DNA of 64,000 nucleotides from an uncultured Eubacteriales bacterium. GTDB taxonomy: Bacteria; Bacillota; Clostridia; Christensenellales; UBA1242. How positions within the stretch are numbered: the first letter of the stretch is position 1; each line of letters starts with the position of its first letter. Below, one piece after another: positions 2,005 through 48,071 of this stretch. The translations under genes were made by a program, and so were the position numbers. Where the stretch lies: positions 1,799 through 65,798 of the forward strand of contig CAPERS010000006.1 in NCBI GenBank assembly GCA_948607205.1, given 5' to 3'. The notes under the pieces are model-generated. The model made no database searches. It worked only from the letters and a program-made list of their open reading frames with translations, and was not told where the DNA came from.

Positions 2005-2026
2005 CTTGAAATATAGGAGAAGATAT

Positions 2027-3313
2027 ATGACGACTCAAATTTCAAAACTCGAAGTTGGAAAAGTTAAATTTCAAGGCATGATTGAAACTGTTCGTGACAA
2101 AAAAAACATTCAGTTTGTTGTTTTGAAAGACTTTTCAGGAAAAATTCAAGTGACAGTTGATAAGGTTGCACATCCAGAAGTGGGTGAGGTTTTTGCAAAA
2201 CTTTTGACAGGCTCAACAGTTATGGTCGAAGGCGAACTTGTTAAAAGCGAATATGTCAAGATGGGCGGTCAAGAAGTGCTCGTTGAAAGCGTTATTGTCA
2301 CAAGTGAGGCAAAAGAGCCATATCCAATCGGCCCTGAAAGCAATATTGACCAGCGCATTGATTATCGCTGGCTTGACCTTAGACAAGACAAAAACTTGCT
2401 TATTTTCAAAGTTCAAACATGTTTCACTGAGGCTATGAGAGAGTTCCTTGAAAAGCGTGACTTTGTTGAAATTCATTCACCAAAACTTATTGGAACGGCA
2501 TCTGAAAGTGGCTCGGAAGTTTTTGAAGTGAAATATTTTGACGGAAAAGCATATCTTGCACAAAGTCCACAATTTTATAAACAACTTGCCATTTCGGCAG
2601 GATTTGGAAGAGTTTTTGAATGCGGACCAGTTTTTCGTGCTGAGAAGTCACATTCAAGAAAACATGCGACTGAGTTCACTGGTTTTGACCTCGAATTCAC
2701 AGGAATTGAAAGTTGCGAAGATGTTATGAAAATGGAAGAAGAACTTGTAACCTATGCTCTTCAAAAAGTAAGTGAAAAGTATGGCGAGGCAATAAAGGCA
2801 ACTTTTGGCGTCGAAGTTAAAGTTCCAACTCTTCCTTTCCCAAGAATTGAACTTGGTGACCTCTATGATGAACTTGAAAAGCGTTACGGTTATACAATTG
2901 AAGAAAGTGAAAAAGATGACCTTTCAACCGAAGGAGAAAAACTTTGCAAACAATTTGCAATGGATTTTTACGGACATGAATTTTTGTTTATCACCGGTTA
3001 TGGTCCAAGAAAAAGAGCGTTCTATCATTTGCGCAAGAACGGAATCCCACAAGGTTATGACCTCATTTGGAAGGGCGTTGAAATCACAACAGGCGCGCAG
3101 AGAGAGCATAGATATGATATTCTTAAAGCGCAAGCCGAAGAAAAAGGTCTTGCAAAAGATGTTGAGTTCTATCTTCAATTCTTTAAATATGGTTGTCCTC
3201 AACATGGCGGATTTGGGCTTGGTCTTGACAGAATTATTATGAACCTTTTGGAACTTGCAAATATAAAAGAAGCCATGTTTATATTCCGTGGTCCTGAAAG
3301 AATCAGCCCTTAA
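2027..3313 (+). CDS. aspS: aspartate--tRNA ligase, short archaeal/eukaryal type (no GAD insertion)
   Basis: About 428 aa. N-terminal OB fold, class II motifs (FRAEKSHSRKHATEF, GGFGLGLDRIIM). Start moved from the track TTG (2006) to the ATG at 2027, which has an SD. Confidence 0.9.
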   Translation: MTTQISKLEVGKVKFQGMIETVRDKKNIQFVVLKDFSGKIQVTVDKVAHPEVGEVFAKLLTGSTVMVEGELVKSEYVKMGGQEVLVESVIVTSEAKEPYPIGPESNIDQRIDYRWLDLRQDKNLLIFKVQTCFTEAMREFLEKRDFVEIHSPKLIGTASESGSEVFEVKYFDGKAYLAQSPQFYKQLAISAGFGRVFECGPVFRAEKSHSRKHATEFTGFDLEFTGIESCEDVMKMEEELVTYALQKVSEKYGEAIKATFGVEVKVPTLPFPRIELGDLYDELEKRYGYTIEESEKDDLSTEGEKLCKQFAMDFYGHEFLFITGYGPRKRAFYHLRKNGIPQGYDLIWKGVEITTGAQREHRYDILKAQAEEKGLAKDVEFYLQFFKYGCPQHGGFGLGLDRIIMNLLELANIKEAMFIFRGPERISP

Positions 3314-3360: not shown

Positions 3361-4740
3361 ATGAAAAAAATTGATATTGTAAAATTAAGAAAAGAGCCTC
3401 AAAAGTTTACTGATAAGTCTTTCACTATCGGTGGCTGGGTGCGCTCAGTTCGTGACATGAAAACATTTGGTTTTATTGACCTCAATGACGGAACCTCTTT
3501 CAAAGGCATTCAAGTGGTTTTGAATGCTGAGAAAATTGCTAACTATCAAGAAGTTTCACACCTCAATACTGGAAGCAGTGTGCTTTGTGAGGGAACACTT
3601 AAATTGACACCAGAGGCAAAACAGCCATTCGAGTTTGTTGCAGACAAAGTTGAAATCCTTTCTGCGACTGATGAAAGTTATCCAATTCAAAAAAAGAAAA
3701 CTTCGCTTGAAGTTTTGCGTGAACAGGCATATCTTCGCCCAAGAACAAATCTTTTCAATGCTGTTTTCAGAGTGAGAAGTGAAAGTTCGTTCGCTCTTCA
3801 TAAGTTTTTTAATGAGCAAGGCTTTGTTTATCTTCATGCACCAATCTTGACTTCTTCTGACTGCGAAGGAGCAGGAGAACTTTTCAGAGTCAGCACGCAA
3901 GATATCTATGCTGGAAAAAAACTCAATCCGGAAGACGAACTTCTTGGCAAGAAAGCCTTCCTTTCACCATCTTGTCAACTTGAAGGCGAGGCTTTTGCGC
4001 TTGCATTTGGCAATATTTACACTTTTGGTCCTTCTTTCCGTGCGGAAAACAGCAACACTGTCAAACACGTAAATGAGTTTTGGCATATTGAGCCTGAAAT
4101 GGCATTTGCCGAACTTTTTGATGATATGGACGTTATGGAAAGCATGGTTAAATATGTTATCAACTATCTCTTTGATAAATGCAAAGACGAACTTGAATTT
4201 TTCGATAGTTTCGTTGAAACTGGACTTATTGCAAAACTTAAAAATGTGACTGACAATGAGTTTGCACGTGTGTCATACACAGAAGCAATCGAAATTTTGA
4301 AGAAAAATAACGATAAGTTTGATTATAAAGTTGAATGGGGTAGTGATATTCAAACAGAACACGAAAAATATCTCACCGAAGTGGTTTACAAAAAACCTGT
4401 TTTCGTTTATGACTATCCAAAGGAAATTAAAGCATTCTATATGCGCGTCAACGAAGATGGCAAAACAGTTCGTGCAACCGACCTTCTTGTTCCAGGCATT
4501 GGCGAACTTTGTGGAGCAAGCGAAAGAGAGGAGCGATATGAAGTCTTGAAAGCACGTATTGACGAACTTGGACTCAGAGAAGAAGACTATTGGTGGTTTA
4601 TGAACCTTCGCAAATTCGGAAGCGTGAAGCACAGCGGATTTGGCATGGGCTTTGACCGTTTCCTTATGTATGTGACAGGAATGAAAAACATTCGTGACGT
4701 CCTTCCTTTCCCAAGAACACCAAACAACTGCGAATACTAA
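3361..4740 (+). CDS. asnS: asparagine--tRNA ligase
   Basis: Class IIb synthetase: FRAENSNTVKHVNEFWHIEPE, GELCGASEREERYE, HSGFGMGFDRFLMY. AGGAG SD. Confidence 0.93.
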   Translation: MKKIDIVKLRKEPQKFTDKSFTIGGWVRSVRDMKTFGFIDLNDGTSFKGIQVVLNAEKIANYQEVSHLNTGSSVLCEGTLKLTPEAKQPFEFVADKVEILSATDESYPIQKKKTSLEVLREQAYLRPRTNLFNAVFRVRSESSFALHKFFNEQGFVYLHAPILTSSDCEGAGELFRVSTQDIYAGKKLNPEDELLGKKAFLSPSCQLEGEAFALAFGNIYTFGPSFRAENSNTVKHVNEFWHIEPEMAFAELFDDMDVMESMVKYVINYLFDKCKDELEFFDSFVETGLIAKLKNVTDNEFARVSYTEAIEILKKNNDKFDYKVEWGSDIQTEHEKYLTEVVYKKPVFVYDYPKEIKAFYMRVNEDGKTVRATDLLVPGIGELCGASEREERYEVLKARIDELGLREEDYWWFMNLRKFGSVKHSGFGMGFDRFLMYVTGMKNIRDVLPFPRTPNNCEY

Positions 4741-4884
4741 GCCTTAGGCTCTTTATATCTATCAACTTCATTCAAAGTTGATATTTTATTCGGTCATGTG
4801 CATTATGCACTTTTCATCTTTTGACTAAATTCGAAATTTTCACTTAATCCGTTCTTATGCATTATGCTTTTACTTTAAATTATA
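4741..4884 (+). repeat. three tandem ~59-bp units, each centred on a short palindrome (repeat family locus A)
   Basis: GCCTTAGGC 4741-4749, GTGCATTATGCAC 4798-4810, GCATTATGC 4859-4867; the centres are 59 bp apart. Related arrays at 29985-30097 and 55418-55585. Confidence 0.7.
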
Positions 4885-4912
4885 AAAAGACAGAAATTCC
4901 TGTCTTTTTTTT
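4884..4912 (+). terminator. Rho-independent terminator
   Basis: AGACAG-aaattc-CTGTCT followed by T8. Same stem type as the terminators at 8557 and 14595. Confidence 0.75.
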
Positions 4913-4976
4913 GTTAAAAATTTTATAATTATCATTAAAAAGTGCAAATCAAAAACTAAAAAACTATCTTTTTATT

Positions 4977-5004
4977 TTGTATTTACTCAATTTTTGAGTA
5001 TAAT
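4977..5004 (+). promoter_or_regulatory. promoter P1 with embedded 17-bp palindrome TACTCAA-TTT-TTGAGTA
   Basis: TTGTAT (4977-4982), 16-bp spacer, TATAAT (4999-5004). Perfect 7-bp inverted repeat at 4984-5000 overlaps the -10. Duplicated at 13562-13590. Confidence 0.55.
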
Positions 5005-5089
5005 AATATATATTTAAAAATAACTCTCAGCATAGCCACGCTTTCGAAACGGAAACGCAAAAATGGCGTGAGTTTCCTGTCGGATTTTG

Positions 5090-5121
5090 TTGACATGGGG
5101 GGGGGGATTTTGAGGTATAAT
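5090..5121 (+). promoter_or_regulatory. promoter P2 with a G10 tract in a 20-bp spacer (candidate phase-variable promoter)
   Basis: TTGACA 5090-5095 and TATAAT 5116-5121. The spacer is 20 bp, of which 5097-5106 is GGGGGGGGGG. Confidence 0.6.
5097..5106. repeat. G10 homopolymer
   Basis: Read directly from the sequence. It is the longest G/C run I noticed in this AT-rich window. Confidence 0.95.
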
Positions 5122-5153
5122 TATTTAAAGAATAAATATAAAAAGGATAAAGT

Positions 5154-8100
5154 ATGAAAAAAATACATAAGATTTTGTTAACAGTTTCTTTTGTCTTTGC
5201 GGTGTGCTTTTCAGCAGGCTTGTTTTTCACTTATTCTGATTTTAAAAGCGGTAATTATCAAGACACAGAAACTTATGCATGGGAAAGTAAATCAATTCAT
5301 AGTTTTGTTGTCTATTGTTTGCAAAAGCCGGTAACAAAAACTGCTTTAGGCACATTTACTGTTAAAGATTTAGGTTTTAAAGTGACATACACATCACAAG
5401 ACGGATGGGAAGATGGAAGTGTAGGAAATTTTTCAATAGGTTATTCAGATAAGTCAGGCGTTGATTTTGCTTCTTATTCAACTGGAAGTGGCAAAATTGG
5501 AGATGGAGGTATTGGTGGAAGTGTGACATTATCTAAAACGTGGTTTGCAGGTGACCAAGTTGCAAACTATAAGGTTAACTATTATGTTAGCGCACCAGGA
5601 TATGAGGTTTATACTCTTTCACAAACTTTTAATGCGTTGTATGCAGAAAAATACTTTGACAAAATTTTATCAGGGGATGTAACTTTGAGTTCTGTGAGTG
5701 ATGCATGGGGTGCTTCCAGTTACACTGCTTCCATTGAAAGGACAACCACTTTGAAGACGGCAACCAATTCAAGTGAAAATGTATGGTTTTTCAGTTATGT
5801 TGCCCCAAGAAGATATAAAGTTACATTTGATGCCAATGGCGGAAGTGGTGGTGGAGATTCTACAATAACTTATGGTAATAAATACCGTTGTCCAACTCCA
5901 ACACGTGAGGGTTTCACATTTGAGGGATGGTATCGTTCAAATGGTGAACGTGTTTATTATGATACTTTTAAAACTTCTCCAGATAATGAAACTTTAACTG
6001 CGCGTTGGACAGATTCTCAAGCGCCAACTGTTCATAGAGCAACATGGCAACAAAATGGCGCAACTGGATATTATGCTTATGCTTATGTCACTGACAATGA
6101 TGCTGTTGCAAGAGTTCAATTTCCAACATGGACGGAATTGAATGGTCAAGATGACATACAAGGAAATTGGTCAACAAGCAGTGCCGCTAGTGGAAGTTAT
6201 GGTTCTTGGACAGTGGACGGACAAAGTTATAATTATCGCTATGAAGTCAAAGTTGCAGACCATAATAATGAATATGGGCTTTACCATACTCATATTTACG
6301 CTTACGACCCAACTGGAAATCGAAGTTCAGGAAGTTCAGTAGGAAGTGTCACATTTAGTTTTGAATTTGATATCAATCAGTTTGTTAATGGTGTTAACAA
6401 TGGAACAGACCCAGCAACTTTTTCAGTTAAAATTGATGGTGTTGTCGAAGTTTCAAATGTTCATGATTTTTGTCAGCCTGTGCTTTATGGTGCAAAAGTT
6501 GAAATATATGACATAAAATATCCATCAAATTATCATTATACAGGCTATAAACTTGCATCTTCTTATACAAGTAACATTGATGACCTAGCAAACCTAAAAG
6601 GTTCAGGCAGTTCAAAAACAAATATAATTGTCACTGTTCCAAATTATAGGTCAAACGTCAATCTTCAAATAATAACAAATCACCAGTTGACAATCAATGA
6701 TGGTTTAATCACTCAGGTTAAGAGAGTTTTTGATAAATCTCTTTATGCACTTTCTCTTCCAACAAGACCGGGATATATTTTCACCGGTTGGACAGTTTCA
6801 GGAAGTGGAAAAATGATTGAATCACAATATCTAAAAGACGGCAAAACTTTCAATGGCACAAGTGATTATGTAAGTCTTGGAAGAACTCACATGTATACTG
6901 ATAAATTTTTGTTCAGTGTTTGGGCGAGCATGGACGACTGGAGTGAATTTAAAGATTCAAGAATTTTGAGCTGCACTGAAGGTGGCGGATGGAACATGCA
7001 GGGCGCTGATGTTATTGATTTCATTGCATATCAAAATGGAGTGGGCTATGTGGAAGCATTTTCAGATAAGAAATGGAGTTCATTGTCATCAGGCTGGCAC
7101 AATTTTGTTGGCACATTCACTGGCAACGAGTTGGCACTTTATATTGACGGCGAATTGGTTGCCCTTTCAAAAACGTTCACAAATAAGGCTGTTTCATATC
7201 ACCCAACAAATTCAATCATTATTGGTGCTGAGCCAGGTGGCGGAACTGATATTGAGGGTAAATATTTTAAAGGTCAAATTGCCAATGTGATTTTGTATAA
7301 TGATTTTGTCAACACTGTTGATGGAATGACTTCTTTTGACCAAGAATACTATTTCCTCGCAGGCAACAGTGACACCACAATAACTGCAAACTGGATTGAA
7401 ACCTGGGCAGGAGCGGGTAAAGACGTTGAACTTACAACCGACGCAAGCGGAGCATATCTCATTTCGAGTGCAGAGGAACTTGGGAAAATTGCATACGAAG
7501 TTAGTTGTTTGGGTAACACGCAATCTGGGAATAAATTCAAACTTGTTAACAATATTGACCTTGCAGGCAAATATTGGATGCCGATTGGAACGCATGAGTC
7601 AAGATTTAAAGGTGAATTTGATGGAAACAATTTCACGATATCAAATGTTAAAAGTGATTACTTTAATGACATAGGACTTTTCGGAAAAATTTTAGACACT
7701 TCGATTTCAAATTTGATCTTATCACAAATTGATATTAAAGGTGGAGATTATGCCGGAGGACTTGTTGGCGTTGCGACAAATTCACAAATTAAAAATTGTA
7801 AAATTTTAAGCGGAAGTGTTATTGGTAGAACATGGGTAACTGGTGGAATTTGCGGATGCGCTGAAAATTCAACTATTATTGAAAATTGTGTTAACTCAGC
7901 AAAAGTTGAATCAAGATATCATGGTGGAATTTGCGGACTTGTTAACACTTCGAGAATTATTGGATGCATAAACTATGGAACAATTGAAAACTATGACGAA
8001 GGCTCAGATTACTATTATGGTGGAATCGCAGGCAAAACGTATGGCAATGGTGTTATCATAGAAAAATGCATCAATTATGGAGAAGTTTCCAACAAAAAAG

Positions 8101-8558
8101 GTGTGGACGGAATTGCAGGCATACTTGGTTCGAACGAGGGTGAAAACACAGCTATTTCTGCTTGTGCAAACTATGGGAATATCATTTCAAAAAGTGGTTC
8201 AACTCGTTTCAGTGGTGCAATTGTTGGAAGAAACGATAGAAATGACCTGCTTATTGAAAATTGTTCTTCAAATTGCGAAATGTCAGGAAAAGGCAGTGCC
8301 GCAACGTGGGTTAGTGTTCTCTGTGGAGGTGAAGGCAGAGCATATGTCAAATCAAGTTATGCTTCAATGACAGTTGCTGGAGAAAGTGTAAAGCATGCCT
8401 ATGGAAATGCTGAAGATTTTAACAAAGGATTTCGATTTGTATCTGGCATGAACAATGACCTTCCAATGCAAGTTGATTTATTTGAATACGCGAGTCAAAT
8501 TCCAATGCAGTCAGATGTGCTTTCGGTTGGTCTTACTGGATTTGAACTTATTGGATAA
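5154..8558 (+). CDS. large surface protein: signal anchor, Listeria-Bacteroides (Flg_new) repeats, GBS Bsp-like repeat, LamG-like domain, GLUG-motif repeats
   Basis: N-terminal hydrophobic anchor ILLTVSFVFAVCFSAGLFF. YKVTFDANGGSGG..GFTFEGW and RPGYIFTGW (Flg_new). FPTWTELNGQDDI..YHTHIY (Bsp-like). WHNFVGTFTGNELALYIDGELV..FKGQIANVILYN (LamG). Repeated GGLVG/GGICG..NC motifs (GLUG). Confidence 0.8.
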   Translation: MKKIHKILLTVSFVFAVCFSAGLFFTYSDFKSGNYQDTETYAWESKSIHSFVVYCLQKPVTKTALGTFTVKDLGFKVTYTSQDGWEDGSVGNFSIGYSDKSGVDFASYSTGSGKIGDGGIGGSVTLSKTWFAGDQVANYKVNYYVSAPGYEVYTLSQTFNALYAEKYFDKILSGDVTLSSVSDAWGASSYTASIERTTTLKTATNSSENVWFFSYVAPRRYKVTFDANGGSGGGDSTITYGNKYRCPTPTREGFTFEGWYRSNGERVYYDTFKTSPDNETLTARWTDSQAPTVHRATWQQNGATGYYAYAYVTDNDAVARVQFPTWTELNGQDDIQGNWSTSSAASGSYGSWTVDGQSYNYRYEVKVADHNNEYGLYHTHIYAYDPTGNRSSGSSVGSVTFSFEFDINQFVNGVNNGTDPATFSVKIDGVVEVSNVHDFCQPVLYGAKVEIYDIKYPSNYHYTGYKLASSYTSNIDDLANLKGSGSSKTNIIVTVPNYRSNVNLQIITNHQLTINDGLITQVKRVFDKSLYALSLPTRPGYIFTGWTVSGSGKMIESQYLKDGKTFNGTSDYVSLGRTHMYTDKFLFSVWASMDDWSEFKDSRILSCTEGGGWNMQGADVIDFIAYQNGVGYVEAFSDKKWSSLSSGWHNFVGTFTGNELALYIDGELVALSKTFTNKAVSYHPTNSIIIGAEPGGGTDIEGKYFKGQIANVILYNDFVNTVDGMTSFDQEYYFLAGNSDTTITANWIETWAGAGKDVELTTDASGAYLISSAEELGKIAYEVSCLGNTQSGNKFKLVNNIDLAGKYWMPIGTHESRFKGEFDGNNFTISNVKSDYFNDIGLFGKILDTSISNLILSQIDIKGGDYAGGLVGVATNSQIKNCKILSGSVIGRTWVTGGICGCAENSTIIENCVNSAKVESRYHGGICGLVNTSRIIGCINYGTIENYDEGSDYYYGGIAGKTYGNGVIIEKCINYGEVSNKKGVDGIAGILGSNEGENTAISACANYGNIISKSGSTRFSGAIVGRNDRNDLLIENCSSNCEMSGKGSAATWVSVLCGGEGRAYVKSSYASMTVAGESVKHAYGNAEDFNKGFRFVSGMNNDLPMQVDLFEYASQIPMQSDVLSVGLTGFELIG

Positions 8559-8585
8559 AAAAGACAGATAATCTGTCTTTTTTTG
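8557..8585 (+). terminator. Rho-independent terminator
   Basis: AAGACAGAT-a-ATCTGTCTT followed by a T run. Near-identical to the one at 14595-14623. Confidence 0.8.
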
Positions 8586-8743
8586 TATGCAAGAATAAAA
8601 AATCAAAAGAATTTTTAATTAAAAAACAAATTATAAAGAAAAATAGAATATAAAACTTTTTCAAAAAAAAATACGAACATTTCACAAAATTTTCTTTATA
8701 TTGATAATAGGACAAATGCGGTCAAATTACTAAGGAGAAAATT

Positions 8744-9547: not shown

Positions 9548-11749
9548 ATGCAAAAAAGTTCAAGTGAAAATTGGAAGGAAAAGTTAGAGATTCTTGCGCC
9601 TGCTGGCAACAAAGAAAGTTTTTTTGTTGCTCTTTCTGCTGGTGCTGACGCAATTTATCTTGGCGTTAATGATTTCAATGCACGTGGCAACATTGAAAAT
9701 ATTTCACTTGAAAATTTGGCAGAACTTGTTAGGAAAGCCCATCTTTTTGGCGTTAAAGTCTATTTAACACTCAACACACTTATTCATGACAGCGAAATTG
9801 AAAATGTTTTGGCAGTTGTTCGTCAAGCCATAAGCGCTAAGGTCGATGCGTTCATAGTTCAAGATATCGGTCTTGCATATCTGCTTAGGCAAAAGTTTGA
9901 GAAAATTGAACTTCACGCAAGCACACAAATGGGTATTGAAAATCTTGAAGGTGCGTCATTTTTGAGTCCTATTGGATTCAAGCGAATTGTGCTTGCAAGA
10001 GAAACTCCGCTTGCAGAAATTTCCAGAATAAAAAAAGAACTTGGAATTGATATTGAATATTTCGTTCAAGGCGCGCTTTGCGTTGGCTATTCAGGCAATT
10101 GCTATCTTTGTTCTCTTCTTGCGTCAGCAAGTGGCAACAGAGGCAAGTGCAAACAGTTTTGTCGTTTGCCATATCAGGCTAAAATGGGCAATATAGAAAA
10201 ACAGGGCTATCTTCTCAGCACTAAAGATTTTTGCATGTTGCCAAAACTTAAAGAACTTGTTCAAAGTGGTGTGACAAGTTTGAAGATTGAAGGAAGAGCG
10301 CGAAGACCTGCCTATGTCGGACAAGTCGTTACGACATATCGTAAAGCCATTGACAACAATTTTCACTTTGACCAAGAAGATTTAAATGACCTCAAAAAAG
10401 TTTTCAATAGAGGTGATTATACAGCAGGCTATTTTGAAAACACTTCAATCATATATCCTAAAACGCAAAATCATATTGGTCTTGAGATTGGAAAGGTTTT
10501 TGAAGTTAAAAACGGCAATCGTTTCAACGAGGTCACTCTAAAAATTTCGCATGAACTTATAAAAGGTGACAGCCTGAAGTTTTTTGTTAATGAAAAAGAA
10601 GTTGCCTCAGTTTCAGTTCAAGACGTCAAAAAAGTTGGCAGTGACAAATTTATCTTCACAACTACGGCAAAAATTCCAAACAATGCAAAAGTAAGTTTGA
10701 TTTCAAGTAAGGCGCAAGAAAATCAAATCTTTTCGATGAAAAGGCAGATAAAAGTCAATGGCACACTTTTTTGCCGAGTTGGAAAGAGGGCAAAGTTGAC
10801 CTTGAACTATGGTGATGTTTTTGCTGTTGGCGAAAGTGAAAGCTTGCTTGAGGCAAGCAAGAACAGCCCGCTAATAAAAGAGGAGTGTTTTTCTCAAATT
10901 TGCAAATTGGGAGAAAATTTTGTTCTTGCAAATCTTGAAGTTGAACTTGATGATGTGTTTATGAGAAAGGCAGAACTTAACGAACTCAGGCGAAAGACAA
11001 TTGCACTTTTGGAAGAAAAAATAATTGCAAAATATATTGAAATACACAAACTAAATGAAATAACTGAAAAAAACTTTGTTTTTTCATCAAAAAGAGAGGA
11101 AAATAAAGAAAAAATCATCTCTGTTGATAATTTTGATAAACTGAAAAAAATATGTCAAAGTGATAAAAATTCACTCATTGTTTACAGCCCAAAAGTTTTC
11201 AATAAAGATGAAATTGTAAGTTTTGCAAACAGCCAAAAACGAATGGTTTATCTCGACCTTCCAGTCATTGCAACTCATGAAGATGTGGAACTTTATAGGG
11301 AAATAATCAGTTTAAGTTCATTTATTGGCGTGCTTGCGAACAATTATTATGCTCTCACATTGACAGATAAAGAAAAGACGATTGTTGGAAGCGAAATGAA
11401 TGTTTTCAATTCTCTTTCTGTTGAGTTTTATAAAAAACAAGGGTTTGATAAAATTGTTCTTTCAAAAGAAAGCGTTGACGTTGAAAATATCGTGGGAGAA
11501 GGCGTTAAACTTTTTGTTCCAACTTCGGTAAGACATAAACTTATCTATTTTAAACACTGTCCAATCAAAGAGCATTTTGGTGGCAATTGTGCAAATTGCA
11601 AATATAAAGAGGGTGTTAAATATCTTCTCAAAGGTCAAGGTTCATTCACTCTTGAACGTGTCAAATCACGAACTTGCCAGTTCTTTTTGAGAAATGAGAA
11701 ATTGACAACAAAAGAAAGTTTTGGCTTTGGCGAATTTGTTGAAGAATAA
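9548..11749 (+). CDS. U32-family peptidase (long form with C-terminal extension)
   Basis: N-terminal LEILAPAGNKESFFVALSAGADAIYLG, and E..ELHASTQM, GALC..SGNCYLCS motifs typical of U32. AAGGAGA SD. Confidence 0.85.
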   Translation: MQKSSSENWKEKLEILAPAGNKESFFVALSAGADAIYLGVNDFNARGNIENISLENLAELVRKAHLFGVKVYLTLNTLIHDSEIENVLAVVRQAISAKVDAFIVQDIGLAYLLRQKFEKIELHASTQMGIENLEGASFLSPIGFKRIVLARETPLAEISRIKKELGIDIEYFVQGALCVGYSGNCYLCSLLASASGNRGKCKQFCRLPYQAKMGNIEKQGYLLSTKDFCMLPKLKELVQSGVTSLKIEGRARRPAYVGQVVTTYRKAIDNNFHFDQEDLNDLKKVFNRGDYTAGYFENTSIIYPKTQNHIGLEIGKVFEVKNGNRFNEVTLKISHELIKGDSLKFFVNEKEVASVSVQDVKKVGSDKFIFTTTAKIPNNAKVSLISSKAQENQIFSMKRQIKVNGTLFCRVGKRAKLTLNYGDVFAVGESESLLEASKNSPLIKEECFSQICKLGENFVLANLEVELDDVFMRKAELNELRRKTIALLEEKIIAKYIEIHKLNEITEKNFVFSSKREENKEKIISVDNFDKLKKICQSDKNSLIVYSPKVFNKDEIVSFANSQKRMVYLDLPVIATHEDVELYREIISLSSFIGVLANNYYALTLTDKEKTIVGSEMNVFNSLSVEFYKKQGFDKIVLSKESVDVENIVGEGVKLFVPTSVRHKLIYFKHCPIKEHFGGNCANCKYKEGVKYLLKGQGSFTLERVKSRTCQFFLRNEKLTTKESFGFGEFVEE

Positions 11750-13551: not shown

Positions 13552-14595
13552 TCTCTTTCACTTGGTAAATACTCAAAAATTGAGTATAATAAGACTATAT
13601 GTTCTTCAACATGGAAACTAAATCATTTTTATGATAATGTTTTTGATGGGCAAGGATTCGTCATCTCTGGCTTAAAAATTGGTGATTTTTATGAATATGC
13701 CGGGTTGTTTGGTGGAATAAGTCATAACGCTATTGTTGAAAATTTGATTCTAGATAATGTCAAAATCGTAAATTCTCAAAAAAATGGAGAAGTTGGAGCA
13801 ATTGCTGGTAATGTGTCATATGAGAGCGTGGTTCGAAATTGTGAAGTTCGTTCTGGAACTGTTAAAAGCAAAAATGCCGGCGGTGTTGTTGGCACTGTAA
13901 ATTTAAGTGGCAAAGTTTACAATTGTGTAAACATGGCAGAAGTTAATGGCACTAATGCTGGAGGAATTTTTTATTCATTAGCACTTTCTGTAAATTATAC
14001 AGATTCACTGGTTTATGGTTGTTTCAACTATGGGAAAGTTCAAGGGACAAGAAATTGTGGTGGAATTGGAGCAGAACTAAATCTCAACACAATCCTTAAA
14101 AACTGCGTTAACTATGGTGATGTTGTGTGTGGCTCTACTGTTGGTGGCATTATTGGTTATACCTATGGCAATGCAAGCATAACATCTTGTGCTAACTATG
14201 GTTCATTAACAGATTCCATTGGAGGCAGGATAGGTGGAATTCTTGGCAGTTGCAGTTCTTCAAATGATGTGATTACAATTATGTATTGCTCATCAGTTGG
14301 ACTATGGAGCGGTTTCACAAGCGGAACTAACTATATATATGGCGGAACTGCAAATGGTTTGATTTCAGGGTGCTATGTTAAAGCAATCCTTGAAAGTAGT
14401 GTTGGAAGTGGTGCTTTGGTTATGTATAAATATGCATATGGCACAGCTGAAGATTTTAATAAAGGATTTCGATTTGTATCCGGCATGAACAACAACCTGC
14501 CAATGCAAGTTGATTTGTTCGAATACGCTAAACAAATTCCAATACAGAGTGATGTGCTTTTAACTGGGCTTGCCGGATTTCAACTTGTTGGATGA
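13552..14595 (+). pseudogene. 5'-truncated paralog of the GLUG-repeat surface protein (possible silent cassette or pseudogene)
   Basis: Homology to 5154-8558 (FDGQGFVISGL vs FDGNNFTISNV) starts in frame at about 13620, upstream of the only candidate start (TTG 13705, no SD). No in-frame ATG, no signal peptide. The last ~50 aa and the terminator are about 85% identical to 8400-8585. Confidence 0.5.
13562..13590 (+). promoter_or_regulatory. second copy of the palindrome-bearing promoter (TACTCAA-AAA-TTGAGTA)
   Basis: TTGGTA (13562-13567), 17-bp spacer, TATAAT (13585-13590). The palindrome at 13570-13586 is the exact reverse complement of 4984-5000. Confidence 0.55.
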
Positions 14596-14623
14596 AAAAA
14601 GACAGATTATCTGTCTTTTTTTT
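14595..14623. terminator. bidirectional Rho-independent terminator
   Basis: A6-GACAGAT-t-ATCTGTC-T9, between convergent genes. Confidence 0.8.
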
Positions 14624-14665
14624 GTATGCAATAATAATTTAAATCACATGTAAGTTTTTCAATTT

Positions 14666-42431: not shown

Positions 42432-45400
42432 TTATTGTTTTCCGTCTTCATTTTCATTTTTTTCTGTTTTAATTTGAGGTATTTCGTTGTTTTGCAAGAG
42501 TTCTTCGAAAGCTTTTTTCTCTTCCTCATTTAAAATGCCTTGTTCTTTCTTGCGTTCAAGTTCCTTTTTCTTTTCTTCATCAAGTTGTTTCTTTTTCTCG
42601 TCCTCATCTTTTTCTTTGACATCTTTGCTTTTGATTCTAAAAACGAAAGTTGAGTTTGTTTTGCCTTTATCGGTCACATTCTTTGAAAATTTTGAAATAA
42701 CTTTTTTGAAGGCTTTTTCGCTCTTAGACGACTTCACGCTCTTTTCATTTGACATTTTGCCAATTGATGCATTGAACGATTCAATTGAAAAGTCTTTGTT
42801 TGAACTTGCAAAAGTTTTTGGGTCAACATTGAGCGCTTTAAGGCATGCTTGAAATTTCTCACTCTTTGTCAGTTCGAAAAGTTTATCTCTAAGAAGGCCT
42901 TCATCTCCTGTCTGGAAGTTTTGGGCGGAAAATTCTTTGTTGACTTTGTTTATCATATCAGTCATTTCTTGAAGCGCTGAATTTTTGGTGTAAGCGGTTA
43001 TCGCTTTGTTTTCTTTATCTGAGATATTTTGCTCAGTTGAAGACTTTTTGAGTGTTTCTCTTCCAGCCCTGAAATGTGCCTTAGCACTTTCTTTAGTCAC
43101 TTTTTGTTCAAGCGCTCTGAGGTTTCTTGTTGTGTCTTGAAGTCCTGCAATTTCACTGCCTTTAATCATTTTTTTGATGTCTTTTTCATCAAGAGTTGTG
43201 CATGCAATCAAGAATTCATCAGTGAGAATCTTGTCAAATGCATTAACATAAGTCAAATTTTCCATTGCTATTTCATTTTTCATTGTTTTAAATTTGTCAA
43301 AAATTGCTTGTCTTAAAATAGGGGTCATATCTTTTGTTGAACTATCATTTTTGAGGTTTGCTTTCACTTGAAGCACAATGTCTGCAAAAATTTGTGTATC
43401 AGTTTCAAAGATAGGTGTGTTTCTATCTTGCTTTTTCACTTCATTATTGACAATTGATATAATTGAATTTAACTTTTCTTCAAGTCTTGGGTCGTCTGGT
43501 GAAAACTTGGTTGATTCAATCATCTTTTTGATTGCGTCTTCGCCAAGGTTTCTGCCATCAAGGCGTTTGCTTGACTTGCAGTGTTCAATCAATTTTTCTT
43601 GAAGTTCGCTTGCATTTTGAATGTCACCATTTTTAACATCGTTCTTGATTTTGTCACAAATTACAGGAGCAAATTTTTCAAGAGCAGGAGTGATAATTTT
43701 TTTAATAAATTCATTTTGTTGAGCGTAAGCATTTTCGATTCCGTGCTTTGCACTTACAGCATATTCTTTTGCAGAGAAATCATCTTCTTCACTTTCAGTT
43801 TGAAGTTCGTCAAGGTTTTTGACTTGATTCATATACATATCGTTCAAAATATTAAATTTAATATAACTTCTGATTTCGCCATTTGCAAGAGCGTTTGCAA
43901 GTGTAAGAATTTTTGTGCTGTTATCTTCGCTTAGAGTATCATCGTTTGAAAGCGTAACAAGGTTGATAAGCAGTTTTTCTTGCTCTGCGTTCACTTCCAT
44001 ATTGTTTGACTTAAGAATGTTTTTAACATTCTTTTCATAATCTTTGACATCTTTTGGGTCAAAATTTTTGTTTTTGATAAGTTCTGCTGTCTTTTTAGGA
44101 AGTTGCTTGAAGAGAGTTTCAACTTGTTTGTCAATATTTTCTTCAATATTTTTGTTTGCATCATGAAGAGAAATCAAAGTTTTGATTTCATTATCATCAG
44201 ATAAATTGTCACCCGTTAAAGCCATAATTTCTTTGTTTTTAAGGATTTCATCAAGTTCAAGTTTGCTTAGCATTTCCTTATTTGCTTGGCTCTTGACTTT
44301 TGAAATGAGGACTTGTCTGATATATTTTTCAATTTCTCTTTCAAAGTTCATGATTGGCTCAGTGAGTTTTGCAGAGAATGGAACGATTGAGAAATTTGAT
44401 TTCAATGCAGTTGGATTGAATTGTTGTGAAAGTGATTCAAAGAAATCAGTTTGCTCAAGGAGATGATTTCGCTTTTGCAAGAGTTCTTTAATGTTGTTGC
44501 TTTTTGCATGACTTTGCACTGACATAAGTTCGGTTGTGAAAACTTTTCTGCCGAAAATAAAGCCGTTGTCGCCACCATTTCCAAACATGCTTGTTTCTGC
44601 TCCGTCTGTTATTTGAGATAATGAATTTTCAGTTGCTCCTGCAAACTTGCCATATTTTTCAAAATAGTTTTCGGCGTCTTGAAGATTTGCCACTGCGCTT
44701 GCATAGGCATATTGTTTTGTCATGTTGACAATATCTTGTTTAGTAGGGCAGACTGGCTGATTTTCAGTTGCCATAACTTTTGTTGTGAAGTTCATTGCTT
44801 CTGCAAAGGCTTCACGTTGCTGGCTGTCGATATCACGTTTTTTCTGATATTGTCCAAGTTCGTATGCTCGTTGTTGTGCACTTTCAATGTCTTTCACGCC
44901 ATCTGCAACCAATGAGCAAACTTGGCCGTGAATGTTTTCTGAAAAGATAGAATAGAAATTGTCAACAACTTGAGGATTGTGTTGTTCCGAAAAAGCATAG
45001 TGTTGAGCAATCGCATTTTTATGCTTTTCAACCATTTGGAGAATTTGAGCATCGTTGAAAGTTGCTTCTCTTTTTCCGTTTTCGCTAAGGTTTTCACCTG
45101 TCAAGATGCGTTTAACAAAAATTTCACTTCCGTTGATTATCATTTCGTCGTTTGCTTTTTTTGCTTGTTGAACTTTGGCTTGTGAGCCGTTATATTGGCT
45201 GAGTTTGTCAAGAGTATTTTTTGTTCTTGCATGAGCGCCAAGTTGTTCACTGAGTTTTGCTTTTATCTCACTGTTTGCTTCTGAGAAATGCTTATTGATA
45301 ATTTCATCAATATCTTTTTGGTTGCTGTGGTCATTGATTTTTTTGATATCTTCAATAATCTTAGCATTCTTGTTGTTTCCGTTTGCGCCATAAACTTTGA

Positions 45401-48071
45401 TATATTCTTTCTGAAGTTCTTGTGCGTTTGAAAATTTTGTAGGGTCAATTTCAGGGAAAGCGCCATTTGCAATTGCAAAATTAACAAAGTTTGTTGCGCT
45501 AGGGCAGAAAGATTTGACGCCATTCATAACTTTTTTGCGTTGTTCATCGTTAAGCAAAATATCTTTTGAGATAAGTTTGTTATTTTCGTCAAATGATGAT
45601 GTGCGGAAATATTTATCAACGAATTCATTTTGAATTTCGGCTGTAACACCAAAGCTGTTCATTTTTCTCATGTCTGAAAGCATGTCCATGCGAAGTTCCA
45701 TGTGCTGTTCATCCATAAACTGTTCCATTGAGTTCACTTCTGGAATCATTCCATCCTCAATTGCTTGCATGATAAATTCATTATAGAATGGGTCAGTTTG
45801 AACATTCTCAGCCATTTCATTTTCCACTTTTGCGTGGTTTTCAATTGCAGTGTCAAGATTTTTTTCTTGTTCCCAGAATTGTTCTTGTTGATTTTCAATT
45901 TCGCGTTCAAGTTCAGTGAGTGGGTCAAGATAGCGAGTGTATGTTTTGATAAGTGGATTTTTGAGTTTGTCAATGCTTGCAGCATAAGCCATACCGCCAA
46001 CTGTGGAAGCAACGGCAACTGCGCTGACAACAACGGCAGCAACTGCGCCAAGTCCAAGCAGTGGGGCAATCAACAAAAGTGCAAGGCCGAAAATTATCAT
46101 AATATCGGCAGGAGTTTCTTGAAATTTTCTTTTTGTGCGGTCAATCTCTTCGGTTTCGCGCTCGGTTTGAGTGAAATTGTCAACAATAGGCTTCAGTGCT
46201 TTTTCTTCGTTTTGAGGTTGCTCCTCTTGTTCCTTTTTGTCGTTCCCATTGTTTCCGTCACCTCCATCACCAGCAGGAGTTTCAGTTTCTTCTGGTTGTT
46301 CAATATCTTCTTGCTCTTGTGGCTTTTCATCAACTTGTTCTTCTTGTGCCTGTGGCTTAGAAGCAATGTTGAAGGTGATAGGCTTAATTTCTTGAGGAGT
46401 AAAATCGTGAAGGTCACGAGAATCAGCATCTTCAACAACAAAATTGAAGTTTTCAAGCGTTCCATAACTGTTTGTTGATTGAAGTGCGGTGATGTTTGGA
46501 TTGCCCAAAAAATCTTCAAATGATTTAAAGACTTTAAGTCTTGCCTCATCAAATTTAAAATCTTTTAAGTCAGCAGTTCTTTCTTGTTTTGACTTTGAAG
46601 ACCAGTTTTCAATTTTGCCAATTGGGATTGAGTATTGAGTTTTGTTTGCTTGGAAAACAAGGCTGAAAACTCCATCTCTGAACATGCGTTTATAATCCTT
46701 TAACTCTGCCCAAGAACCTTGCTTTGCACTATCTTTTGCGCCCAAGTTAATATAACATTTGCCATTGGTCTTTGTAAGAAAATATTTTTGAATATCTCCA
46801 TTGGCGTCTGCAATATTAAGAACTGAAATGGAAGAAGTGGCTTGTCCAGCTTTGTTTGAAGTGATTGCAAACTCTTGCAAAAATTCTTGTTCTTTTGTTT
46901 CTTCTTTTTCATTGTTTTTGATATTTGCATAAAGAAGAACAAGTTGATTTAAATATGCATCTCTAAGTCCGCTTCCATTTGTTCCCATATTTAAAGATTT
47001 AGTGGCAACATAACTGTCGTTTTTTGAGAACAGCCTTTCAACAAGACCTGTTGAAACGGTTGGATTCAATATTGCTTGTGAACCATCCATATTTTGTGCA
47101 ACGAAAGAATATTCCTTGCCTTCGCAAGAAAGTTTTGCGCCGAGTGGTCCAACTTCAAGGGTGTATTCCTTAACAGTTCCGTCAGACGATTCCACATTTA
47201 AGGTGAGTGAATTGTTTGTTGAGGTGAGTGTTATTGGAGATTTAGCATCGTTAGGCTTTACTTCAAGTTTTGCAATGCCATTTTCTGATTGAATATCAAG
47301 ACCTTCAAAAAGTGCTTTTGGAAATTTAACAAAAACATTATCGCCTTCTTGCTCTAAACGGAATAAATCCTTGTCATCTTGTGAAAAGGCAATCAAAAGG
47401 TTGTTATCATTGACCATAGCCAAAGTTTGTTTATGATTAACTTCGCCGACATTAACGTTGTTGTTAATTGACTGAGTTTGAGCACCTGAAAGCCTTTCAA
47501 GTTTAGGCAAGGTCCGTGCTTTTGCTTGCGCCTCTGCCTGTGCCAGCAACTGTTCGAGATTGTTGTTAAAATTTTCTGACGCCTTTTTCAATTCGTTTGG
47601 GTTTCTTTCAGGTTCAGATGAAGGCTGTTCTTGCGATTCTTCAAGTTCTCTGAATTTTTTCATTGCTAATTCCATTGCTTCAAGTTTTATCTTTTCTTGT
47701 TCCAATGGCTCTATTTTTTCAGTAGGCTTTTCTTGGGCTTTCTTTTTGCTCTCTTTTATTTGCTTTTGTATATATTCTCGGTATATATCTTTTGAAGCAT
47801 CATCAAGAAGAGAATTCATTTCTCCTTTTGATTTTGAAATTTTGTAGCGAGTGGCTTCATCAACGTCTACACGATTTAGTGCATTTTTTCCAGCGCTATA
47901 AATGTAGTTCTCTTGTTGAGACTCTTTTTTGTTCTTAAATTCATCAAGTTCAGTTGCTTCTTGCATTGCTTGATAAATTTTAGCAAAGATTTCTTTACCT
48001 TTTTCGCTAAGAAAATTAAATTTAACACTAAACTTTTCTTCAAAATAACTTTTATCTTTTCTTTCCAACAT
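42432..48071 (-). CDS. giant orphan protein (1879 aa) with a central double-helix membrane segment
   Basis: Uninterrupted 5.6-kb ORF, GAGGTG SD, its own consensus promoter. No signal peptide. A single hydrophobic block IMIIFGLALLLIAPLLGLGAVAAVVVSAVAVASTVGGMAYAAS near aa 645-690. The rest is K/E/N-rich and helical. Confidence 0.75.
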   Translation of the reverse strand: MLERKDKSYFEEKFSVKFNFLSEKGKEIFAKIYQAMQEATELDEFKNKKESQQENYIYSAGKNALNRVDVDEATRYKISKSKGEMNSLLDDASKDIYREYIQKQIKESKKKAQEKPTEKIEPLEQEKIKLEAMELAMKKFRELEESQEQPSSEPERNPNELKKASENFNNNLEQLLAQAEAQAKARTLPKLERLSGAQTQSINNNVNVGEVNHKQTLAMVNDNNLLIAFSQDDKDLFRLEQEGDNVFVKFPKALFEGLDIQSENGIAKLEVKPNDAKSPITLTSTNNSLTLNVESSDGTVKEYTLEVGPLGAKLSCEGKEYSFVAQNMDGSQAILNPTVSTGLVERLFSKNDSYVATKSLNMGTNGSGLRDAYLNQLVLLYANIKNNEKEETKEQEFLQEFAITSNKAGQATSSISVLNIADANGDIQKYFLTKTNGKCYINLGAKDSAKQGSWAELKDYKRMFRDGVFSLVFQANKTQYSIPIGKIENWSSKSKQERTADLKDFKFDEARLKVFKSFEDFLGNPNITALQSTNSYGTLENFNFVVEDADSRDLHDFTPQEIKPITFNIASKPQAQEEQVDEKPQEQEDIEQPEETETPAGDGGDGNNGNDKKEQEEQPQNEEKALKPIVDNFTQTERETEEIDRTKRKFQETPADIMIIFGLALLLIAPLLGLGAVAAVVVSAVAVASTVGGMAYAASIDKLKNPLIKTYTRYLDPLTELEREIENQQEQFWEQEKNLDTAIENHAKVENEMAENVQTDPFYNEFIMQAIEDGMIPEVNSMEQFMDEQHMELRMDMLSDMRKMNSFGVTAEIQNEFVDKYFRTSSFDENNKLISKDILLNDEQRKKVMNGVKSFCPSATNFVNFAIANGAFPEIDPTKFSNAQELQKEYIKVYGANGNNKNAKIIEDIKKINDHSNQKDIDEIINKHFSEANSEIKAKLSEQLGAHARTKNTLDKLSQYNGSQAKVQQAKKANDEMIINGSEIFVKRILTGENLSENGKREATFNDAQILQMVEKHKNAIAQHYAFSEQHNPQVVDNFYSIFSENIHGQVCSLVADGVKDIESAQQRAYELGQYQKKRDIDSQQREAFAEAMNFTTKVMATENQPVCPTKQDIVNMTKQYAYASAVANLQDAENYFEKYGKFAGATENSLSQITDGAETSMFGNGGDNGFIFGRKVFTTELMSVQSHAKSNNIKELLQKRNHLLEQTDFFESLSQQFNPTALKSNFSIVPFSAKLTEPIMNFEREIEKYIRQVLISKVKSQANKEMLSKLELDEILKNKEIMALTGDNLSDDNEIKTLISLHDANKNIEENIDKQVETLFKQLPKKTAELIKNKNFDPKDVKDYEKNVKNILKSNNMEVNAEQEKLLINLVTLSNDDTLSEDNSTKILTLANALANGEIRSYIKFNILNDMYMNQVKNLDELQTESEEDDFSAKEYAVSAKHGIENAYAQQNEFIKKIITPALEKFAPVICDKIKNDVKNGDIQNASELQEKLIEHCKSSKRLDGRNLGEDAIKKMIESTKFSPDDPRLEEKLNSIISIVNNEVKKQDRNTPIFETDTQIFADIVLQVKANLKNDSSTKDMTPILRQAIFDKFKTMKNEIAMENLTYVNAFDKILTDEFLIACTTLDEKDIKKMIKGSEIAGLQDTTRNLRALEQKVTKESAKAHFRAGRETLKKSSTEQNISDKENKAITAYTKNSALQEMTDMINKVNKEFSAQNFQTGDEGLLRDKLFELTKSEKFQACLKALNVDPKTFASSNKDFSIESFNASIGKMSNEKSVKSSKSEKAFKKVISKFSKNVTDKGKTNSTFVFRIKSKDVKEKDEDEKKKQLDEEKKKELERKKEQGILNEEEKKAFEELLQNNEIPQIKTEKNENEDGKQ

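Follow-up and report, generated by a model that had tools for sequence, protein, structure and literature searches.

A length-variable poly-G tract in a promoter spacer as a candidate slippage switch of a large surface protein in an uncultured Clostridia-group gut bacterium

The poly-G promoter and its target gene

The window analysed here, a 64,000-nucleotide stretch of contig CAPERS010000006.1 from an uncultured Eubacteriales bacterium, is ordinary chromosome with genes for tRNA synthetases, UvrC, ParC/ParE-like proteins, SecA and YchF, and it carries on the plus strand a gene for a 1134-aa surface protein (5154–8558) with a run of ten Gs inside its promoter. This promoter, termed P2 and assigned from sequence only, consists of the −35 hexamer TTGACA (5090–5095), a single T (5096), the uninterrupted G10 homopolymer (5097–5106), the stretch ATTTTGAGG (5107–5115) and the −10 hexamer TATAAT (5116–5121), all on the plus strand, hence the spacer TGGGGGGGGGGATTTTGAGG is 20 bp long. 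The ATG at 5154 lies 32 nt past the −10 hexamer, with a ribosome-binding site (AAGGA, 5143–5147, plus strand) 6 nt ahead of it. An initial annotation of this DNA had described two perfect hexamers at 20-bp spacing around a G10 tract, with a gene for a signal-anchored 1134-aa protein 32 nt downstream, and on re-reading every coordinate was right, the open reading frame (ORF) starting with an N-terminal hydrophobic signal/anchor. The P2 hexamer pair was absent from the output of a standard 16–18-bp promoter scan, as a 20-bp spacer would lead one to expect. At 16–18 bp from the P2 TATAAT there is no alternative −35, the hexamers at those distances being GACATG, ACATGG and CATGGG.

A regulatory region of its own precedes the surface-protein gene, since the asnS-like gene upstream (ORF end at 4740) is closed by an intrinsic terminator (4884–4909, plus strand; a 10-pair stem and then a T run) which forms the 5' edge of that region. 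An upstream promoter was also mentioned in the initial annotation and is present as P1, a tract-free promoter-like module on the plus strand (4977–5004) with TTGTAT (4977–4982), a 16-bp spacer and TATAAT (4999–5004), 90 bp upstream of P2 and kept in paralogs and other species. Directly 5' of the P2 −35 hexamer lies a conserved block, GGAAACGCAA-N16-CTGTC (5051–5081, plus strand), a candidate activator or UP-type site. P1, this block, P2 with its G tract, the 5' untranslated region and the first ~29 codons (signal/anchor) together form a conserved 5' cassette (4965–5241, plus strand).

The G10 tract, the putative hypermutable element of P2, was confirmed as the longest G/C homopolymer of the window and is the sole G/C run of six or more in its 64 kb (GC content 36%). 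Among 300 dinucleotide-preserving shuffles of the window, G/C runs of at least 8 occurred with a mean of 0.033 per shuffled window, and a run of 10 was reached in 0.3% of shuffles (P ~0.003). Ten Gs also lie within the length range of hypermutable homopolymers (about 7 or more G/C).

The target protein combines the N-terminal signal/anchor with a Listeria-Bacteroides repeat (Flg_new), a GBS_Bsp-like repeat, a Laminin_G_3 domain and a C-terminal GLUG-motif parallel beta-helix, a domain content that points to a surface or host-interaction protein. Residues 740–1134 were modelled as a parallel beta-helix (AlphaFold, predicted local distance difference test (pLDDT) 83.8, predicted template modelling score (pTM) 0.87). 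The best fold matches in the PDB were the beta-helix of a putative Bacteroides immunoglobulin A1 (IgA1) protease (3n6z) and streptococcal and Gemella IgA1 proteases; the adhesins PfbA and L. reuteri SRRP came next. Template modelling (TM) scores of 0.45–0.49 indicate fold-level similarity only. A PDB sequence search with the protein gave no matches. The protein contains neither HExxH nor LPxTG, no convincing lipobox (…VFAVC…) and no internal tandem repeats. Identity as an IgA1 metalloprotease was rejected, as only the beta-helix is shared and HExxH is absent, and the structural model suggests a surface-exposed, binding-type protein rather than a protease.

An identical protein is encoded on contigs of two NCBI metagenome-assembled genomes (MAGs; GCA_948664835.1 and GCA_948877975.1), and near-identical proteins occur in the ENA assembly ERZ14864678 and the JGI metagenome 3300038382. 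A protein scan of genome contigs recovered cross-species homologs only, none from the window's own species. The MAGs that carry these homologs are titled uncultured Clostridia, Eubacteriales or Firmicutes, and the mouse gut catalogue MGBC is the source of some of them. Sporulation genes, e.g. SpoVA, YunB, GerA and YtfJ, are found next to related loci.

Tract length and promoter layout across genomes

Comparison of related assemblies, a check already proposed in the initial annotation, showed that the tract is not invariant. At the locus of the window (locus A), two of five assemblies have G9 (L001 and L008) and three have G10 (the window, L002 and L012). All assemblies compared are short-read consensus sequences and some may come from related samples. 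An alignment of the window with L001 spans 9,406 columns with no substitution and a single indel, which is the G tract. A paralog in the same species follows groEL at a second site (locus B). Its promoter is TTGACT-A-Gn-ATTTTGAGG-TATAAT in L009 (G8) and L014 (G9), and it reads TTGACA-T-G9 in L013. Across 23,325 columns, L009 and L014 differ by one single-nucleotide polymorphism and two indels, both of which fall in promoter-spacer tracts: G8/G9 ahead of paralog B and C9/C8 ahead of a methyltransferase gene.

The latter promoter looks strong and reads TTGACA-AGT-Cn-ATGC-TAGTAT with a TGn extended −10 (L009:1565–1612, C9 at 1586–1594; C8 at L014:1586–1593). It precedes a gene for a 261-aa class-I S-adenosylmethionine (SAM) methyltransferase, located between gyrB and gyrA, in which no DNA-methyltransferase signature was found; from its promoter, phase variation of this gene is possible. 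All three G/C tracts in these comparisons differed between near-clonal genomes, whereas the six A/T runs of at least 8 nt (8–9 nt) in the same DNA were all constant (Fisher p = 0.012), the pattern expected of hypermutable tracts. Locus A, locus B and the methyltransferase promoter thus each show tract-length polymorphism with unchanged flanks.

The two paralogs share their 5' cassette but have divergent bodies. Nucleotide identity between the window cassette (4965–5241) and locus B is 95% for L013 and 91% for L009 (blastn, about 200–277 bp), and the gene bodies align only in patches, with local protein alignments at 34–42% identity and best segments at 44–46% amino-acid identity.

The promoter layout is retained well beyond the species. 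Homologs in three other MAG species, with about 30–50% amino-acid identity, are preceded by TTGAC-(1–3 nt)-G9/G10-...-TAnAnT. In L003 the promoter is TTGACG-C-G10-ATTTTGAAG-TATAAT (20-bp spacer), in L004 TTGACG-CAC-G9-ATTTGA-TAAAAT (18 bp), in L005 TTGACG-C-G9-ATTTGC-TATACT (16 bp) and in L011 TTGACG-C-G10-AATTTGG-TATACT (18 bp), with a further case, TTGACA-AAT-C9-GAT-TATAAT (15 bp), ahead of an unrelated 499-aa gene in L015. An alignment of eight cassettes, in which the TTGAC of the −35 hexamer is shared by three species, shows GTTGAC, the G run, TA.AAT and the upstream block as invariant, while adjacent bases change. Altogether, eight distinct promoter tracts from four or five MAG species follow TTGAC(A/T/G)-1..3 nt-(G or C)8-10-3..9 nt-TAnnnT, with spacers of 15–20 bp that are each at most two single-base slips from 16–18 bp. 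In ~260 kb of non-redundant DNA of this group, all 13 G/C runs of at least 8 occupied one of two positions, namely the −35/−10 spacer (n = 8) or the stretch just after a signal peptide (n = 5).

Tracts at the second position belong to more distant homologs, in which the run lies in the coding sequence immediately 3' of the signal peptide. In L016, L017 and L018 the G10 tract (L016:9894–9903, L017:6059–6068, L018:1452–1461) ends the frame after 36 codons, and G9 restores a 918-aa ORF. L015 likewise has a G10 allele (9961–9970) for which G9 restores a 940-aa ORF, and L019, from the same sample as L015, has G9 in frame (10084–10092). L020 also has G9 in frame (10109–10117), after a lipobox, and the homolog L021 has no tract. 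For the OFF alleles (L015, L016–18), gene callers had used a downstream start, hence the signal peptide is lost from the annotation. An intragenic G8 in L011 (21063–21070) was rejected as a switch, as no tract length restored a long ORF, and the gene that holds it is probably decayed. Control of a single gene family by tracts in two mechanistically distinct ways points to selection for mutability itself and not for any particular DNA-binding site.

A putative slippage switch and its alternatives

We consider it likely that the G tract is a slippage-driven modulator of P2, that is, a contingency locus in the spacer of a sigma-A-type promoter. Slipped-strand mispairing at replication would add or remove single Gs in the spacer, and with n Gs the −35/−10 distance at locus A would be n+10 bp. 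G7 and G8 would then place the hexamers 17 and 18 bp apart and give a strong P2, whereas G9 and G10, at 19 and 20 bp, would leave it weak or silent. A population would mix cells with different levels of a large secreted or anchored multi-domain surface protein, among which host pressures (IgA, phage, niche) could select. At least two divergent paralogs per genome carry the ~280-bp cassette and could thus vary independently. The 17 ± 1 bp rule and precedents in other bacteria lead us to expect length-dependent transcription, and with it we infer frequent reversible switching, heterogeneity within the population and a payoff from surface variation. The slipped-strand phase switch through −35/−10 spacing that the initial annotation had proposed is supported by the tract polymorphism, the conserved layout and the in-frame tracts of distant homologs.

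Several points weigh against such a switch. Single-base differences in G/C homopolymers of short-read MAGs may in part stem from errors of sequencing or consensus calling. None of the five locus-A assemblies, which all have G9 or G10 (19–20 bp), shows a predicted ON allele (G7 or G8), and G8 (18 bp) was seen only at the paralog. As the loci were ascertained through homologs of the target protein, the tract census is not an unbiased genome sample, though three of its tracts (methyltransferase, L015:2037 and L011:21063) came from flanks which had not been picked for them. The conserved P1 (4977–5004) could also give tract-independent transcription, leaving a graded or small effect; the tract may therefore dim rather than switch off expression, with P1 perhaps supplying a basal level and the output being graded. 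The earlier view that the promoter is OFF as assembled holds in so far as a weak P2 is expected at G10, and is qualified in that P1, 90 bp upstream, allows graded expression.

The most serious rival, which we nevertheless regard as unlikely, is that the tract is passive, with the gene transcribed from P1 (start near 5011) and the G9/G10 differences reflecting consensus errors or neutral drift. P1 is kept in all family members, the locus-A alleles (19–20 bp) would leave P2 weak in every assembly, and MAG consensus may err at homopolymers, all as a passive tract would have it. However, a pure G/C run of 8–10 nt, disfavoured by chance at 36% GC, is kept between TTGAC and the −10 across species, indels are confined to G/C tracts with none at A/T runs or elsewhere, and related genes have the same tract in frame, where its length clearly decides between ON and OFF. 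Less probable still is an activator-dependent P2 that works at 19–20 bp, through MerR-like twisting or through a factor on GGAAACGCAA...CTGTC, with the G run serving as a structural or binding element. Spacers of 19–20 bp are typical of MerR-type promoters, locus A and L003 are always at 19–20 bp, and a conserved block sits directly upstream of the −35. The length would thus suit the MerR-type long-spacer class, but the spacer TGGGGGGGGGGATTTTGAGG has neither dyad symmetry nor a significant inverted repeat and no regulator gene is adjacent to the locus, so P2 lacks the two other hallmarks of that class. Moreover, other cassettes of the family have spacers of 15–18 bp, and near-clonal genomes carry tracts of unequal length. 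A slippage switch would not preclude an activator site, judging by B. pertussis fim and T. pallidum tpr/CRP.

Two further explanations place the function of the region elsewhere. It is very improbable that 5011–5153 encodes a structured 5' leader (riboswitch or attenuator) on a P1 transcript, with the G run as part of its fold. The stretch from P1 to the ATG is conserved and the window sequence allows a GGAAAC...GUUUCC hairpin, yet there was no Rfam match at the locus, either at E ≤1 (4700–5300) or at the gathering threshold (whole window). RNAalifold gave 0 compensatory pairs and an unfavourable covariation term (+0.92), the fold was no better than that of shuffles (z = −1.28), and the tract length varies. 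The G-tract module of L005 and L011, moreover, precedes P1 and hence falls outside any transcript from it. Inversion of a promoter-bearing DNA segment, with the G run incidental, is described for Clostridioides difficile and gut Bacteroidales (PMC11868660) and seems highly improbable here, as the flanking inverted repeats are weak, AT-rich and only 77–80% complementary, no recombinase gene is nearby and the orientation is the same in all assemblies. On these tests both the structured leader and the inverton were rejected.

The slippage switch preferred here resembles several described systems. In Mycoplasma hyorhinis, work by Yogev, Citti, Wise and colleagues reportedly showed that vlp paralogs share a promoter/leader/signal-peptide region with a spacer homopolymer while their mature regions diverge, and that they switch independently. 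The window is similar in that its 277-bp cassette is 91–95% identical between paralogs whose bodies give local alignments at only 34–42% amino-acid identity. The vlp genes have a poly-A tract, encode lipoproteins with size-variable internal repeats and are clustered, whereas the window has poly-G, shows no repeat size variation and has its paralogs at separate sites (after asnS and after groEL); lacking the lipoprotein, repeat and cluster features, it is best described as a vlp analogue and not a member of that system. In Bordetella pertussis fim2/fim3, a poly-C tract lies between the activator (BvgA) site and the −10, its length setting the geometry between activator, RNA polymerase and −10. 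The GGAAACGCAA...CTGTC block beside the −35 could act as an activator site in the same way, a role for which it is a candidate only, but unlike fim2/fim3 the window has a good −35 hexamer.

Treponema pallidum likewise has poly-G (about 7–11 nt) in surface-protein promoters and a paralog family in which each member has its own tract. Experiments on the OmpW homolog tp0126 have established that poly-G lies between −35 and −10 and that transcription is best at 17-bp spacing, while tprL is active with G8 and close to background with G10, G9 being its commonest length in vivo (PMC7864442). At the tprE, tprG and tprJ promoters, tract length works in concert with a CRP homolog (PMC7864442). T. pallidum is a spirochaete pathogen with outer-membrane targets, whereas the window belongs to an uncultured spore-forming Clostridia-group gut commensal and has a tandem tract-free promoter. 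In Neisseria meningitidis porA, a poly-G spacer homopolymer with an experimentally established 17-bp optimum makes expression of a surface antigen high, intermediate or absent (summarised in PMC7864442), and intergenic tracts made up about half of the variable repeats in a meningococcal survey (PMC5084427). Like the window, porA (spacer poly-G) and opc (poly-C at the −35) have a homopolymer at the promoter of a surface antigen. Neisseria differs in being Gram-negative and pathogenic, and its porA is present in a single copy, not as a paralog family with a shared 5' cassette. Intragenic poly-G tracts of 8–11 nt turn translation ON and OFF in surface-structure genes of Campylobacter jejuni and Bifidobacterium breve (PMC9187656; PMC8355987), the latter a Gram-positive gut commensal with the switch in its pilus genes (PMC9187656). 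This is the design of the related MAG homologs with a tract just after the signal peptide; in the window the tract would act, if at all, on transcription and not on the reading frame.

By this comparison the mechanism would be of the known porA, T. pallidum tp0126 and Mycoplasma vlp kind and involves no new principle. What is new is the group of organisms, the use of tracts at two levels in a single gene family and the presence of a vlp-like cassette. We found no multi-gene phase variation based on simple sequence repeats in Clostridia or Firmicutes gut commensals in the open-access literature, only inversion switches for Clostridia, and a 2025 review gives only inversion switches for Clostridioides (PMC11868660). 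A wider reading, to which we give even chances, is a lineage-wide 'phasome' in uncultured spore-forming low-GC mouse-gut Clostridia. On this reading, the long G/C homopolymers of these genomes may nearly all be contingency loci, in a −35/−10 spacer or just after a signal peptide, giant GLUG beta-helix surface proteins may vary combinatorially through a gene-converted vlp-like 5' cassette, and at least one target, the SAM-dependent methyltransferase between gyrB and gyrA, may not be a surface protein. Phase variation in gut commensals is now discussed almost wholly in terms of invertible promoters (Bacteroidales, Clostridioides), and this uncultured Clostridia-group lineage appears to use homopolymer slippage, by which some species would vary transcription and others translation. 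Its targets are very large surface proteins with a C-terminal beta-helix similar to that of IgA1 proteases and beta-solenoid adhesins. If so, MAG consensus sequences would hide surface heterogeneity relevant to IgA coating, phage resistance and colonisation, and gene callers would mis-annotate these genes, as with the OFF alleles of L015 and L016–18.

The 5' cassette, other family members and neighbouring genes

The upstream block can be extended to the pattern GGAAACGCAA-N15-17-CTGTC-N7-GTTGAC, which has one match in the window (0 expected) and occurs at 8 of 13 loci. There were 0 matches in a metagenome contig collection and 0 in a viral contig collection; this lineage is evidently missing from both collections, though the JGI contig L012 was found via protein look-up. 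No RNA covariation was detected in the conserved block. In L005 and L011 the order of modules is reversed relative to the window, with the P1-type module downstream of the G-tract promoter. These two contigs (L005:2560–2640 and L011:9726–9790) also have, ~100 bp 5' of the intact G-tract promoter, a copy of the upstream block that terminates with TTAACG or TTGACG. An interrupted C-rich stretch (CCCTCTCGCGCAGGCCC or ACCCCCTCGCACAAGCCC) and TAGTAG or TAGTAA come after it, and the whole looks like a decayed former homopolymer promoter. Nearly all G tracts, whether in promoters or in coding sequence, are followed on the 3' side by A(A)TTT (G10ATTTTGAGG, G9ATTTGA, G10ATTTTTAAC, G8ATTTTTAAC). This context could reflect common descent of tract and flank, or it could favour slippage. 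A minus-strand ORF of 67 aa across the tract (5027–5230) was rejected as a gene; the G9 allele alters its frame and C-terminus.

Contig L002 (CAQSGA010000016.1; L002:700–1000 against window 4965 onward) has the locus-B upstream region, 3' of groEL, fused to the locus-A gene. The join falls exactly at the shared ~280-bp 5' cassette, hence it is either a short-read assembly chimera across this repeat or the outcome of genuine recombination or gene conversion involving the two paralog promoters. The L010 contig breaks within the same cassette. Further upstream, the intergenic region between asnS and the surface-protein gene holds a ~60-bp unit with the hairpin GTGCATTATGCAC (window 4770–4830; L012:2569–2684), a copy-number-variable repeat present in one copy in the window and in 1.9 copies (87% match) in the JGI strain. 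Directly upstream are tandem class-II tRNA-synthetase genes of the Asp/Asn/Lys type (2006–3313 and 3361–4740; 435 and 459 aa), an arrangement kept in all assemblies of the window's species.

Two giant ORFs occupy the minus strand of the window at 42432–48071 (1879 aa) and 57097–63903 (2268 aa), neither with a Pfam match at E ≤0.001 or a G/C tract near its start. In L008 the locus-A gene is split into ORFs of 430 and 692 aa by a TCA-to-TAA nonsense change which is not repeat-associated (L008:3970–3976, window about 6444–6446). In ERZ14864678, where the locus-A gene is split, locus B of the same sample has the shortest tract seen (G8, 18-bp spacer). A third family member lies in the window itself (13563–14595) and consists of the C-terminal GLUG beta-helix domain only (ORF 13705–14595). 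It is 41% identical to residues 842–1134 of the target protein, and the homology reaches upstream to ~13600 without a start codon. This ORF has no signal peptide and no G tract and stands directly behind a P1-like promoter, TTGGTA...TATAAT (13563–13591). Its 3' end and terminator (14432–14664) match 8390–8620 at 83% identity. This family member represents either a remnant that has lost its 5' part or a silent cassette.

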